Source: a virus (taxonomy: Duplodnaviria; Heunggongvirae; Uroviricota; Caudoviricetes). From it: a stretch of DNA of 25,465 nt. The position numbers and the translations under genes are program-made. A model generated the notes under the pieces. It was not told the origin of the DNA. It made no database searches and saw only the letters and a program-made list of their open reading frames with translations. Where the stretch lies: IMG/VR virus record IMGVR_UViG_3300047462_000211. One strand, written 5' to 3'. Positions 1,451 to 10,719 of the stretch are shown piece after piece; position 1 is the first letter of the stretch, and every line of letters begins with the position of its first letter.

Positions 1451-1771
1451 ATGACTGAAATGAAAACTTACATTGAATTAATTGAGAAAGCATTATTTTC
1501 CAAAGAAACTGATGCTGGTCATTTATTGCATCAAATGGAAATAGTTTCCAAAATGATGGACGATGGGCATTATGACGGTCATTTTGAAATCATGGATGTT
1601 GGACCATCAATTCGTCCAATTTTGCGTAGAGAATTAACCAAATTGCAAAACTCAGGTCTCAAATTTGAAGAATTAAAAACAATGTTGCATTCAACATTTA
1701 TTGTTCATTGCGAATTGAATTTAGCACATGCAATCATTGCAGATGTTTTTAAAGCTTTACACGATTCTTAA
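1451..1771 (+). CDS. Hypothetical protein with a T4 internal-protein-like N-terminus (MKTYIELIE)
   Basis: ORF with SD. The N-terminus resembles the T4 IPII/IPIII capsid-targeting sequence MKTYQEFIAE. Confidence 0.75.
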   Translation: MTEMKTYIELIEKALFSKETDAGHLLHQMEIVSKMMDDGHYDGHFEIMDVGPSIRPILRRELTKLQNSGLKFEELKTMLHSTFIVHCELNLAHAIIADVFKALHDS

Positions 1772-3455: not shown

Positions 3456-3483
3456 AACATATCAAATAATATATTTTTGTCAA
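3456..3483 (-). promoter_or_regulatory. Sigma70-like promoter for the trpS operon
   Basis: Minus strand TTGACA-N16-TATGTT. Confidence 0.5.
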
Positions 3484-3499
3484 ATTGAATTTTAGACAA

Positions 3500-3526
3500 G
3501 AAAAAAGGGGGTGCAGAACCCCCTTT
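3500..3526 (-). terminator. Intrinsic terminator
   Basis: 8-bp stem aaaggggg/cccccttt with a 7-nt loop and a T-run on the minus strand. Confidence 0.75.
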
Positions 3527-3735
3527 CCCCCGACACATCGTTCCTGTAAGCCCCCTCACCCTTTTGGTTTGGCGGTCCCAGTTTCCTTCGCAACAGGCGA
3601 ACGATTATTAATCAAGTTGGTTGCGACAACTCTCAAAATTTATCGTCCCTATAACAAACGATGTGTTCTAAAAAAGCAATTGGCACTCGCACCGAACCGT
3701 TTAGTCCAGATATTACGAATACCGCACGCTCCAAT
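3500..3735 (-). ncRNA. Candidate structured non-coding RNA, family unassigned
   Basis: GC-rich intergenic block bounded by its own promoter and terminator. A perfect 10-bp long-range stem (3533-3542 with 3657-3666) encloses several hairpins. Confidence 0.55.
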
Positions 3736-3739
3736 TACT

Positions 3740-3767
3740 TTTATACACTAAATATTTTTTCTGTCAA
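3740..3767 (-). promoter_or_regulatory. Sigma70-like promoter (leftward)
   Basis: Minus strand TTGACA-N16-TATAAA. Confidence 0.6.
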
Positions 3768-3796: not shown

Positions 3797-3824
3797 TTGA
3801 CAGAAATTTTTATTGTGTTATAAT
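3797..3824 (+). promoter_or_regulatory. Sigma70-like promoter (rightward) for the tRNA-like RNA
   Basis: TTGACA-N16-TATAAT with an extended -10 TGn. Confidence 0.75.
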
Positions 3825-3847
3825 CATTTTATGATATCGCAGTACGC

Positions 3848-3955
3848 ATCGTAATAGCCTAGTGGCAGGCACGTAATCGCAGCGGTGATGGTCCAATTTA
3901 AGCAAGCTTTATAAACTTGTGGGATAGCTTGGTTCGAATCCAAGATGCGATATCA
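3848..3955 (+). tRNA. Atypical 108-nt tRNA-like element, anticodon unresolved
   Basis: Canonical U8A9, D arm gcct-agtggc-aggc and T arm cttgg-ttcgaat-ccaag. Acceptor atcgtaa/atgcgat has 6 of 7 pairs. There are 57 nt between the D and T arms, and the 3' end is A-TCA rather than CCA. Confidence 0.55.
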
Positions 3956-4657
3956 TTTCAAAGAATATTTTTTATCAATTAATTTTTGTTTGACTTTAAC
4001 CAACTTATCAATATATCCTAAAGACCTAATATTCTTATAAACAACATTGTCAGTGGAATATTCCCCGCCATTATCTAATCCAACTGTACGAAAGTCATGG
4101 ATTTTTTTCAAAAGAAAATCAATGTGCTCAATTGTTGGACTACTTATAACTTCATCTAAATCTTTTTTTATGTTTTTTGTTTTCTGAGATATGTCAGCAT
4201 CGTTGTAATTGGGATTTTTATCTGACGGAAATTTTAACCATTTTCCATACAATAAACTATAAATTCCATTAGAATCAACACCTTCTGATGCATCTTGAAC
4301 ATATATTTCAGTTGGAACACCATGTATTTTGATAGAATAATAATAACTCCACAGAAATCTTTTAGTGTCACATAAATTTTTTAATATATCCGCATCACGA
4401 TAATTTGAAAAATCTACAATGATGTGTAAATCTAAATCAGATTTCGCGGTATAGTTGTAACCAGCATTTGACCCAGTAATTATAATATCCTGTATTTTCA
4501 AGTCGTTAACACCTAAAAATTTATAGAATAATAAAACTTCCTTCAAAAGTTTTACTCGAATTTGAATATCCAAATCATGTGTTTTTACATCCCAAATCTT
4601 GGGATTTAATTTTTTATGATAGGAATAAGTGTGTCTTTCTGGTAACAGTTTAGTCAT
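3953..4657 (-). CDS. Pol-beta superfamily nucleotidyltransferase
   Basis: IIITGSNAGYNY...SDLDLHIIVD (hG[S]...DxD), with the third acidic residue in PTEIYVQD. Confidence 0.85.
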   Translation of the reverse strand: MTKLLPERHTYSYHKKLNPKIWDVKTHDLDIQIRVKLLKEVLLFYKFLGVNDLKIQDIIITGSNAGYNYTAKSDLDLHIIVDFSNYRDADILKNLCDTKRFLWSYYYSIKIHGVPTEIYVQDASEGVDSNGIYSLLYGKWLKFPSDKNPNYNDADISQKTKNIKKDLDEVISSPTIEHIDFLLKKIHDFRTVGLDNGGEYSTDNVVYKNIRSLGYIDKLVKVKQKLIDKKYSLK

Positions 4658-4762: not shown

Positions 4763-4854
4763 TTTTATTAATAGTTGTAATTAAAATTATCAGTCCTAAG
4801 TTCGTGATGGTCACGAATTGGCTGGCTAATTTCTGAAAAAGGATTTTTGTTATT

Positions 4855-5883
4855 ATGAAGAAAAACTTTGCTTTGACCCTGAACTCGGCTGCGCGTTCCC
4901 TGCTTTTTTCCAACAGCCAAACAGCACTTCGTATCCAGCGCGATGGTGCTCTCGCCATCAAGTCTGGCATCAATCCGAACGCCAAGGATGCCATCGGCGT
5001 TGAAGTGCCCGAAAAAGGCGCTCTTGTCGCAAATATCACTGGCACGGATGCTGGCAATCTTGCCAAGGCTTTCAAGAAACTCGGTTACGAAAAGTCGCCC
5101 TATTTTACGCTGAATCGCGGGACTGGCGGCTGGTATGAACTCCAAAACGTTGAAGCAACCAAAATGCCGGGTGTGGCATGTGTGAAGGTGGAAATCCCCG
5201 ATAACGTGGATGAAATCGTGGCGGCGGCTTCCGTTGTGAAGAAACGCGGTCCAAAGCCGGGTTCGAAGCGTGCACCAAAAGCCGCCAAGACTGCCAAGAA
5301 AACTGGCAAGAAAACCAAGATTGAAGCATCTGAATTCCAGGACGAGGATTTTCAAGGTTATGAGCGCCGGTTGTTTGACGCAGCAACCATCATTGCGGCA
5401 TCAACTGGTCAGGCGGGTCGCCCGTCAAGCGAATTGGTTGCTGCCAAGGCAACATTGCTTCGCGCCGAAACGCTGTTCAATAAATTCATGGGCGGCACAA
5501 GCTTGAATGTCATTGCTGAAAAAATGACTGAAGGCTTGAAACTGATTTCGGAAAGCTTCGAACTGATTTCGGCGGTTGCTGCCCATCAGGAAAATCTTTC
5601 GATTATCGCCAATTCGATTGTCGAGAGTGAAATCCAGCAGGAAGCGGCACAAAGCGAAATCACCCAAGAAATCGGTGATGAAGAGGCGGAAGCTGCTGCC
5701 GCGCAATGGTTGAAACCAACGGCGGAAGATGGAGCAACAACTGGTGAAACAACTGACGGCGGCGAATCAATGGAAATTTCGGAAACCGTTGATGAAACCG
5801 AAGTTAAGGAACCAGAAGCAGAAACGGCAAAATCTTCGCCGTCCCGCTCACGTTCGAATCGGCGCATTCCAGAAGCAGCGTAA
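4855..5883 (+). CDS. GC-rich hypothetical protein with an AT-hook-like/Lys-Ala segment and an acidic tail (putative DNA-binding)
   Basis: Contains KKRGPKPGSKRAPKAAKTAKKTGKKTK, a helical middle and an E/T-rich tail. Has SD, promoter and terminator. G+C is 32/60 at 4981-5040. Confidence 0.85.
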   Translation: MKKNFALTLNSAARSLLFSNSQTALRIQRDGALAIKSGINPNAKDAIGVEVPEKGALVANITGTDAGNLAKAFKKLGYEKSPYFTLNRGTGGWYELQNVEATKMPGVACVKVEIPDNVDEIVAAASVVKKRGPKPGSKRAPKAAKTAKKTGKKTKIEASEFQDEDFQGYERRLFDAATIIAASTGQAGRPSSELVAAKATLLRAETLFNKFMGGTSLNVIAEKMTEGLKLISESFELISAVAAHQENLSIIANSIVESEIQQEAAQSEITQEIGDEEAEAAAAQWLKPTAEDGATTGETTDGGESMEISETVDETEVKEPEAETAKSSPSRSRSNRRIPEAA

Positions 5884-5966: not shown

Positions 5967-5971
5967 AAATC

Positions 5972-6218
5972 TTGACGTTGAAATTAGGAAATAGACAGGA
6001 TATACTTGGAATGCAAAATCCAACATCTCCACCAATTTCTATCACTTTGGGGATGAAATAGTCTCGCTATCGGTTGAAGGACTAATGGAGTCAAGGGTAA
6101 GATACGACCCAAAATTTGTTCGAATTTTAAATGCCAACGACAACGTTGCATTCGATAAAGTGGCAATCGCCGCCTAAAATCGATGAGTTTGGTCAGCTTT
6201 GAAACAGAAATGACTTGG
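5972..6218 (+). ncRNA. ssrA: Circularly permuted (two-piece) tmRNA, tag ANDNVAFDKVAIAA
   Basis: T-arm and CATCTCC-A-CCA end at 6034, then a 14-nt intervening segment, then GGGGATG at 6049. The acceptor stem has G3.U70. The tag reading frame gcc aac gac aac...gcc gcc taa spans 6133-6177. Outer ends are approximate. Confidence 0.92.
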
Positions 6219-6245
6219 AAAGAGAGCCAAAAGGCTCTCTTTTTA
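6219..6245 (+). terminator. Intrinsic terminator of tmRNA
   Basis: aaagagagcc-aaaa-ggctctcttttt. Confidence 0.9.
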
Positions 6246-6296
6246 TTTTGACAAGAATTCAATATAAGTATATTCGTTTTTGCATAACACAGGAGC

Positions 6297-6539
6297 ATGA
6301 GCATGCTATTGGACAACAAAATTGAAGCATTGAAAAAAATTGTTCCTGACAATCAAAACAATCCAGAATATACAAAAAAAAATTCTGAAATTTTGATTAG
6401 TACAATTGAAATGGCAGAAGCTTTGAATCAAAGAGATGACACAAAATATCGTCATTTATGTAAAGAAAATGTAGCAGATAGAGAAAATCCAGGCAAATAT
6501 AAAATTTGCAATTTCGGTTTCATTTTTCATTTACCTTGA
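6297..6539 (+). CDS. Hypothetical protein (80 aa)
   Basis: SD AGGAG directly upstream and TTGACA at 6248. Confidence 0.7.
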   Translation: MSMLLDNKIEALKKIVPDNQNNPEYTKKNSEILISTIEMAEALNQRDDTKYRHLCKENVADRENPGKYKICNFGFIFHLP

Positions 6540-9420: not shown

Positions 9421-10719
9421 TTATAAGCCTTTTAGAAGGTTTGAAATATTTTCTGGCGCATCATTACCAAAAAGATTTAAAACAGGCTGTACAGGCTCTT
9501 GTGGCGTTTCTACAGGGGTTTCAGGCGTTGGTTCAACATTGCTATCACTAACCGCAACTTCTCCAATTGATGTATCAATTAATTCAACATTTTCATTCGA
9601 ATCAGTTTGCGCATAAAAACCAGTATTTGGCGGAACCAATTCATCATTTTCAACTGTAAAACCATTATATTTTTTTGCAGCAGAAATAATACCTTCTAAT
9701 TCTTCAACTTTGGCTTTTTTGCGCAATGCTTCCAATTCAGCTTTATGAAATTTTTCCATTTCTTCGTCTGTCGGAATTGTTGGCGGCGGAACAAAATAAT
9801 AATCTTCCATTACACAGGAAGAATTATCGTCATCTTCATCTTCATCTTCATTTCCCATCACATCCCAACGTGAATCATCTTCTGTTTTATAAAATTCAGT
9901 TTCATTAAATACAGCTTTAGACCCAAGAATATCGTCTTTATCTGAACCAGTATATTCAGAAACCACAAGATATTCACAACATCTAACTTTTGCGGCGTTA
10001 TGGTCAACAGGAACAGACACAACATCTTTTGGATTAACTTTAACGATTACAATTTTATTTCCGCCACCAACACCAAATGATGGCAAATAACTCATTGAAC
10101 AAAAATGCAAACCAGATGAACAAGTATCATTCGGATTATCAGAAACTTTATTACGTGGCATTGTAACAACAGTACCAGGGCTATTATCCATGGTTCTCGT
10201 ATGCAAATCTTTGAAATTTTCTGTTACACGTTTATAACCAAGAATAAAACCATCTTCAGTTATTCCCATTTTATGACGTTCAATAAAATCAAATAATTGT
10301 TCAATTGAACGATGGGATGTATTTTGCATCAAATTCTTTAAGAAATTTACATAAGGGTCCATATCAAACCCTTCTGAAATTCCCCAAATAATTCTATTCG
10401 TTAAAGTATTGTTGATTGGCGAGCCTTCATAATAAAGAACACCATTTTCAATGGTAACTTCACCAGAAGCGATAATTTTTTTAATTGGTGCAATCAAATT
10501 TTCTAATTCTTCAAAAGCAAAAAGAACACCGACGTGGTTTTCAACGGCATCATCAAGTTCAACATCTTCATATAATGTATCTTTAATAAGATTTTGAATT
10601 TCTTTGATTTTTTCTTTTGCTAAAAGAAAATTATCATGACTTGAAGTAACTGTTTGTGTTTTTCCTTCTAGATTTGTGAAGGTAAGAGATGATGGTGTAA
10701 TTAAAAATCCAAATGCCAT
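9421..10719 (-). CDS. rIIB: rIIB-like protein with an acidic C-terminal extension
   Basis: GYKRV...MPRNKVSDNPNDTCSSGLHFCS...VKVNPKDVVSVPVD...KVRCCEYLVV. ATG 10719 with SD aagga is preferred over 10749. Confidence 0.9.
   Translation of the reverse strand: MAFGFLITPSSLTFTNLEGKTQTVTSSHDNFLLAKEKIKEIQNLIKDTLYEDVELDDAVENHVGVLFAFEELENLIAPIKKIIASGEVTIENGVLYYEGSPINNTLTNRIIWGISEGFDMDPYVNFLKNLMQNTSHRSIEQLFDFIERHKMGITEDGFILGYKRVTENFKDLHTRTMDNSPGTVVTMPRNKVSDNPNDTCSSGLHFCSMSYLPSFGVGGGNKIVIVKVNPKDVVSVPVDHNAAKVRCCEYLVVSEYTGSDKDDILGSKAVFNETEFYKTEDDSRWDVMGNEDEDEDDDNSSCVMEDYYFVPPPTIPTDEEMEKFHKAELEALRKKAKVEELEGIISAAKKYNGFTVENDELVPPNTGFYAQTDSNENVELIDTSIGEVAVSDSNVEPTPETPVETPQEPVQPVLNLFGNDAPENISNLLKGL

Follow-up and report, generated by a model that had tools for sequence, protein, structure and literature searches.

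The minus strand of the phage DNA analysed here carries a predicted gene for a small multibranch non-coding RNA, in which two hairpin loops are complementary to each other and may form a kissing interaction. We assign a probability of about 0.9 to the gene and its secondary structure being real. At the level of sequence and predicted folding, the layout of promoter, core and terminator as well as a conserved pseudoknotted secondary structure are established. A preliminary description, made from the letters alone, had proposed a multibranch non-coding RNA that possesses a promoter and a terminator and could not be assigned to SRP, RNase P, 6S RNA or a riboswitch. This proposal is supported by our analysis, including the lack of an Rfam match and homologs in which the pairings are maintained by compensatory changes. 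Judged by its sequence the RNA is a new family, which adds a small and well-defined member to the orphan structured phage RNAs. Its novelty refers to Rfam, and it may already be listed in the candidate viral RNA catalogue (PMC10690425).

Promoter, terminator and predicted fold

The whole stretch of 25,465 nt (the window) is part of an 89,465-nt AT-rich contig from an uncultured T4-like jumbo phage and has a G+C content of 31%. Among its T4-like genes are rIIA/rIIB-like ones. From a permuted tmRNA at 5971-6177 (Rfam, 86.3 bits) and an AAA ATPase whose best cultured match is found in Sinorhizobium phage Phosso (43%) we infer an alphaproteobacterial host. On one side of the RNA gene lies an ORF of 82 aa, on the other a tRNA-like RNA in divergent orientation. 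Nearby are genes for TrpRS, located downstream of the RNA, for CysRS and for a nucleotidyltransferase (NTase) of the Pol-beta type, which lies upstream on the same strand. The tRNA-like RNA (3831-3956, plus strand) contains hairpins that resemble the D and T arms as well as a terminal helix of 11 bp. It possesses a perfect TTGACA-N16-TATAAT promoter (3797-3824), from which it would be transcribed away from the kissing-loop RNA. It was missed by ARAGORN and Rfam, and it is not seen in this slot in the related loci L201-L204 described below.

The elements of the RNA gene are, in the direction of transcription:

3740-3767, minus strand: sigma70-type promoter with the -35 box TTGACA (3767-3762), a 16-nt spacer and the -10 box TATAAA (3745-3740)
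3670-3732, minus strand: 5' accessory module, an irregular G-U-rich hairpin of ~60 nt followed by six U (3675-3670), z = -2.71
3657-3666, minus strand: 5' strand of the 10-bp closing stem P1, from folding, the helix list and the three-copy pair table
3599-3648, minus strand: P2 arm, consisting of P2a (3648-3642/3605-3599) and P2b (3632-3627/3619-3614)
3641-3639 (AAA) and 3610-3606 (UAAUA), minus strand: A-rich internal loop of the P2 arm, with the same elements in the homologs L201 and L230
3620-3626, minus strand: loop L2, UCGCAAC, first kissing strand and exact complement of L3
3585-3597, minus strand: P3, a hairpin of 3 bp (CCU/AGG) that presents loop L3, GUUGCGA (3594-3588), as the second kissing strand, supported by the homologs
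3544-3584, minus strand: AAA linker (3584-3582) followed by P4, a variable-length hairpin with the base CUG/CAG, which contains the CGCC/GGUG stem
3533-3542, minus strand: 3' strand of P1, from the same three sources as the 5' strand
3500-3530, minus strand: intrinsic terminator, a 13-bp hairpin with a U run, duplex energy -18.5 kcal/mol

Both the TTGACA-N16-TATAAA promoter and the strong terminator were found as previously described, the latter as the 13-bp hairpin at 3530-3500. The -10 box lacks the T at position -7, which is missing in 57-70% of the promoters across three alphaproteobacteria (PMC7703639). Transcription would start at about 3735-3732. Sites of the form TTGACA-N16-18-TAnAAW occur four times in the window, compared to 0.86 expected, and three of the four sit before RNA genes. 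A consensus scanner of promoters and terminators listed neither the promoter nor the terminator of the RNA gene, probably because the U run is taken up by the terminator stem and the last T is missing from the -10 box. The high G+C content (34 of 60 nt at 3541-3600) was reproduced and amounts to 47% over the unit, i.e. well above the value of the window. Also in agreement with the earlier reading, no credible ORF exists on the RNA strand, where none reaches 60 aa.

The whole unit folds with -84.7 kcal/mol (z = -4.21), which is better than 200 of 200 shuffles, while the core alone gives a z of -3.17. The 5' hairpin, the core and the terminator are predicted to fold independently of one another. 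The closing stem comprises 10 bp (3666-3657/3542-3533) and encloses exactly the 114 nt that had been noted, and the pairings GGACGAU/AUCGUUC, the inner GAGUUG/CAACUU and CGCC/GGUG are all present. P1 closes a 4- to 5-way junction, in which P2a and P3 are joined by a single G. The list of all perfect helices contains a feature absent from the preliminary description: L2 (3626-3620) is exactly complementary to L3 (3594-3588). A nested fold that leaves both loops free lies only +0.5 kcal/mol above the minimum-energy fold, and the loop-loop duplex is worth about -8.8 kcal/mol. A CCUGUU/AACUGG hairpin around GCGAAGGA, as proposed before, contains a U.U mismatch, is not kept in the homologs and would abolish the loop-loop pairing. 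Since the homologs support a 3-bp CCU/AGG hairpin that kisses the loop of the long arm, we replace the former stem by the latter. P2 of the window also contains a tandem G.A of k-turn-like appearance, which is not kept in the homologs.

Regarding the ~60-nt module at the 5' end, the hairpin stood up to the analysis but the suggested boundary pairing AAUUGG/CCAAUU did not, as it starts at 3736 and thus within 4 nt of the -10 box. These letters are part of a 12-bp inverted repeat with one G-U pair (3742-3731/3683-3672, minus strand), whose halves lie on either side of the 5' hairpin. As the repeat reaches into the -10 box, a transcript from this promoter cannot contain all of it. If transcription begins at 3735-3732, (U)GGAGCG/UGCUUU(U) is predicted to close the 5' hairpin instead. 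The six U that follow this hairpin are possibly a weak stop or a processing point. The module lies outside the conserved core (3666-3533): inside P1, L201 contains no more than a hairpin of 13 nt, and the hairpin of ~56 nt found there in L230 is unrelated. The length of ~230 nt originally given for the unit has to be reduced accordingly, with a conserved core of about 110-135 nt and a homolog, L201, that lacks a separate 5' module.

Homologs, conservation and distribution

Relatives of the locus were traced via the NTase protein at 65-67% identity, which provided four loci (L201-L204). In L201 (Logan SRR29078253, NTase with 67% protein identity) the gene order is kept, and the RNA is found in the same slot after the NTase, which again lies upstream on the same strand. 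The L201 RNA has a length of ~110 nt (6387-6494) and is preceded by a promoter-like TTGACT-N17-TAATAG (6353, 6376). A terminator-like two-way hairpin begins at 6498 and faces a convergent gene. Directly upstream of this homolog (6124-6326, plus strand) we observed a hydrophobic 35-aa ORF of no family with its own TTGACA promoter, a strong ribosome-binding site and a single membrane pass.

A motif derived from the window and L201 was scanned over the JGI metagenomes, where P2b, P3 and the complementarity of the loops were not required. One of the five matches, L230 (Ga0307471_100338705), carries the whole fold. It has a G+C content of 48%, contains short unannotated ORFs and probably belongs to an unrelated phage. 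Unconstrained folding closes the L230 RNA with a P1 of its own, and a terminator-like hairpin (517-465) follows the core. The ORF after the RNA in L230 (141-446, minus strand) has no Pfam match and begins with LEDRCLPS, a possible planctomycete extracellular-protein motif that may hint at the host.

The closing stem and the long arm interrupted by the A-rich internal loop are present in all three copies, and so are the 3-bp hairpin, the linker (AAA or UAA) and an additional hairpin. P1 consists of 10 pairs in the window, 5 in L201 and 7 in L230. P2a is nearly invariant; since the motif scan demanded the letters of P2a and of the internal loop, these are conserved by construction in L230 and provide no independent evidence. 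P2b is fully paired in each copy with unrelated letters. P3 reads CCU/AGG in the window, CUG/CAG in L201 and CCC/GGG in L230, with covariation at positions 2 and 3 (CG/UA/CG and UA/GC/CG). The loop pairs are UCGCAAC/GUUGCGA, AUUGCC/GGCAAU and CUGCUC/GAGCAG, respectively, i.e. 19 of 19 pairs are Watson-Crick while the letters differ. P4 is a 14-nt GAAA hairpin in L201 and a GUGAUC/GAUCAC hairpin in L230. The P2 arm measures 20-22 nt per strand in each copy, and this constant length suggests a geometric constraint. No long single-stranded stretch that might serve as a seed for antisense pairing is common to the copies, the conserved letters being those of short stems and unpaired A's.

A collection of homologs with a check for covariation, as recommended in the preliminary description, thus yielded two homologs with compensatory changes in the loops, P3 and P2b; the conservation is that of three sequences, a number too small for a formal covariation statistic. 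Random flanks give the features that had not been asked for at a rate of 1-1.6e-5 per motif match, such that L230 is no chance match among the few dozen that were inspected. A descriptor that is light on sequence found only the window, L201 and L230 in 6.3 Mb, and upon loosening one extra match consisting of A and T only.

The RNA is not present in this slot in the three close relatives L202, L203 and L204, and the NTase occurs without the RNA in L202-L206. No protein gene is common to the three RNA loci and their neighbours differ. The meaning earlier attached to the position within a translation cluster was not borne out, with the 16-kb locus of L201 containing no tRNA, tmRNA or synthetase. 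In L202 the corresponding slot is occupied by another structured RNA, of ~115 nt (1465-1610, plus strand, z = -4.62), with a TTGACA...TATAAA promoter, for which neither an Rfam match nor similarity to the core was found. Its presence suggests that the slot is an exchangeable RNA cassette. L202 further contains a weak match to RAGATH-18 (10234-10299, plus strand, 29.5 bits vs a cut-off of 44.9) at ~370 nt from a tRNA-Ser gene.

When the three copies were compared by blastn to 50,697 phage records, L201 gave no match and the others only short chance matches. Motif scans of IMG/VR provided no homolog, the matches being without P3 or loop complementarity, and none of the 10 matches from a motif scan of GTDB had the fold. 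One of the latter (L240) has a 6-nt complement and was rejected due to a competing hairpin and the lack of P2b. In 802 cellular genomes, of which 401 were sampled from the phylum to which a Planctomycetota MAG belongs and 401 from the class that includes a Mesorhizobium genome, the matches did not exceed those of a reversed-pattern control. These motif searches need invariant letters, such that distant members may be missed. With a covariance model built from two sequences, neither 97 loci nor 48 records of distantly related jumbo phages (Phosso among them) yielded a new member; this result carries little weight, as L230, a true homolog, reaches only 20 bits with the model. Closer relatives identified via other marker proteins (L265-L278) contained no copy in the DNA examined. 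We also rejected L227, whose 18 letters in common with the window lie inside a 330-codon ORF, as well as L215, L217 and L219, where the motif is present without the fold. The last three are related viral contigs that have in common an apparently non-coding structured stretch of ~400 nt with substitutions and without an Rfam match at gathering score.

Comparison with known RNA families

The earlier statement that the RNA matches neither SRP, RNase P and 6S RNA nor a riboswitch was upheld, as Rfam gives no match over the unit at gathering score. With Rfam 15 at E<=10 only terminator-driven or sub-threshold matches were obtained, none of which is common to the three copies, and no ribozyme or riboswitch model appeared for any of them. 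Rfam scans of the window, L201, L202 and L230 likewise returned nothing relevant. On the basis of these comparisons the RNA belongs to none of the families considered. In the lysine riboswitch aptamer, likewise a multiway junction, P2 is bent and its loop pairs with L3 in a kissing interaction. The phage RNA, compared to it through Rfam and without a match there, differs in that it has no loop-E motif, a P3 of only 3 bp and, in L201, no expression platform. A T-box leader was rejected: The T-box-like UGGGACCGCC (3580-3571) lies in the variable P4, has no overlap with the terminator, is absent from both homologs and has no Rfam match. The S domain of SRP was rejected as well, with GAAGGAA belonging to L3, P3 and the linker, not being kept in L201 and L230, and no SRP model matching.

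That the RNA is a strongly diverged housekeeping RNA, i.e. a 6S RNA, an SRP Alu domain or a tRNA-like T4 species 1/2, is highly unlikely, and we consider this reading largely refuted. It would agree with the size, the closed ends and, in the window, the nearby tmRNA, TrpRS, CysRS and tRNA-like RNA. Furthermore, one gappy alignment to a Rickettsiales 6S RNA scored above 499 of 500 shuffles. However, 24 comparisons were made in all, strict gap costs leave only about 20 nt of this alignment, located in the variable P4, and neither L201 nor L230 shows it. 6S RNAs from two alphaproteobacterial genomes and one planctomycete genome served as references. The phage RNA has a multibranch fold with a pseudoknot and not the long rod with central bubble of 6S RNA (RF00013), and it lacks GGGAGCUGUC and GGCGCC-CACCU, which are common to the two alphaproteobacterial 6S RNAs. 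The Alu domain adopts a protein-free compact fold with adjacent kissing hairpins (PMC4231752) and resembles the phage RNA in that a closing helix surrounds two neighbouring hairpins joined by a loop-loop pseudoknot, after which a further helix is found. The phage RNA is nevertheless without helix 2 and S domain, has a single G in place of the UGU linker and very unequal arms, and gives no match to RF01854. RNA C and RNA D of T4 (species 1/2; NC_000866) are likewise small stable phage RNAs of 120-140 nt beside tRNA genes. They carry a tRNA-type T arm and are located within the tRNA gene cluster, whereas the phage RNA has its own promoter and terminator, neither a T arm nor tRNA-like ends, and no sequence similarity to rnaC or rnaD. 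Nor was a cellular homolog found in the GTDB scan and the 802 sampled genomes. Even less credible is the absence of any functional RNA, where the signal would stem from chance structure, from the back of a plus-strand ORF or from an element acting at the DNA level. An 88-codon frame with a TTG start does span the unit on the plus strand (3485-3751), but the equivalent frame has stops in both homologs, many G-U pairs favour the minus strand as RNA, and the compensatory changes together with the chance estimate of 1e-5 speak against it.

Possible functions of the RNA

As function we predict a compact decoy or scaffold RNA that acts in trans, for which we see a chance slightly short of even. In this mechanism the RNA would be transcribed by the host sigma70 polymerase during infection. 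The P2 arm would bend at the A-rich internal loop, such that L2 meets L3 within one molecule. Kissing would provide a compact, nuclease-resistant body, to which the conserved unpaired A's may contribute minor-groove contacts, while P4, the 5' hairpin and P1a would be exchangeable appendages. Most likely the RNA would then bind a host or phage protein, e.g. an RNA-surveillance, defence or translation factor, and would not act by pairing with mRNA. Action in trans is suggested because the L201 terminator faces a convergent gene and the next gene of the window has its own promoter. Action by shape is suggested because conservation concerns the unpaired A's and the lengths of the elements (20-22 nt for each strand of P2, 3 bp for P3 and 6-7 nt for the loops) and not a single-stranded seed. 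Counting against the decoy or scaffold are the lack of a co-occurring partner gene at the three loci and the absence of the RNA from the slot in L202, L203 and L204.

Pairing between molecules is a real alternative to intramolecular closure, since both loops are fully paired on a 3-bp stem and two sharp turns are needed. In this case L2 of one molecule would pair with L3 of the next and give rise to dimers or rings, as for pRNA or ROOL and GOLLD, an outcome that we regard as rather unlikely. The loops are without spare nucleotides, and ColE1-type loops of 7 nt that are fully paired bend by 120 degrees and build rings (PMC6832290). The order of the arms resembles that of the phi29 pRNA, which multimerises by intermolecular kissing (PMC4201828). 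This RNA also has a domain of ~120 nt with a closing helix and long and short arms with complementary loops, whose letters vary while the complementarity is kept. It differs by its three-way junction, its 2-5 kissing pairs and its role in the packaging motor of small Bacillus podoviruses. In the phage RNA the junction is 4- to 5-way, the loops form 6-7 pairs and the second arm comprises 3 bp; the RNA belongs to a T4-like jumbo phage, is found near packaging genes in no copy and is optional among close relatives. Kissing loops between chains also occur in the phage ROOL and GOLLD RNAs (PMC12286853), which similarly are phage-borne orphan RNAs, often near tRNA islands, with kissing loops kept by covariation. 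With 500-800+ nt they are far larger than the about 110-200 nt and one pseudoknot of the RNA described here, which has no Rfam match. Also opposed to self-assembly are the loops, which are not palindromic, and the conserved A-rich internal loop, which appears to be placed where an intramolecular hinge would be needed. Unlike ROOL and GOLLD, the minimal natural form, L201 with its ~110 nt, is of a size amenable to direct tests, and the three natural loop pairs provide built-in compensatory controls to discriminate intra- from intermolecular pairing.

A new small ribozyme or an aptamer that sponges a metabolite or signalling nucleotide is improbable to a greater degree. A compact pseudoknotted multiway junction with a variable periphery is the layout of many ribozymes and aptamers, and the invariant A-rich loop, the AAA linker and the variable peripheral helices would be in agreement with it, as would the Pol-beta-type NTase gene upstream in the window and L201. 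The NTase, though, is found without the RNA in L202-L206 and is missing from the 1.6 kb of L230. No ribozyme or riboswitch model was matched by the three copies, and it is not obvious what a self-cleaving RNA would do in a short unit that has a promoter and a terminator to itself. Control of read-through into the following gene by a riboswitch or attenuator acting in cis appears very unlikely. The core does abut a terminator at all three loci, GAGGGGG (3557-3551) could pair with the 3' strand of the terminator, and ORFs on the same strand lie downstream in the window and L230. However, this alternative pairing (-12 kcal/mol) is weaker than the terminator (-18.5 kcal/mol), the ORFs that lie downstream in the window and in L230 are not related to each other, and the following gene of the window has a TTGACA promoter of its own at 3483. 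The terminator of L201 faces a convergent gene, such that there is nothing to regulate. Taking catalysis and self-assembly together, a phage RNA class of ~110-135 nt may be envisaged that occurs both in an unrelated soil element and in a clade of jumbo phages of Alphaproteobacteria. Such an RNA would be either a ribozyme or aptamer of a new class or, by means of fully paired kissing loops of 6-7 nt, the smallest natural ring-builder outside the phi29 family. We hold this to be possible but doubtful.

Besides the RNA gene, the region between the NTase and a G+C-rich 342-aa gene contains an interrupted palindrome of the type TTCGTGA...TCACGAA (4801-4817 in the window). It is kept in three relatives (L201 at ~5255-5270, L202 at ~574-590 and L203 at ~268-283) and may be read as an operator-like element or as a leader hairpin.
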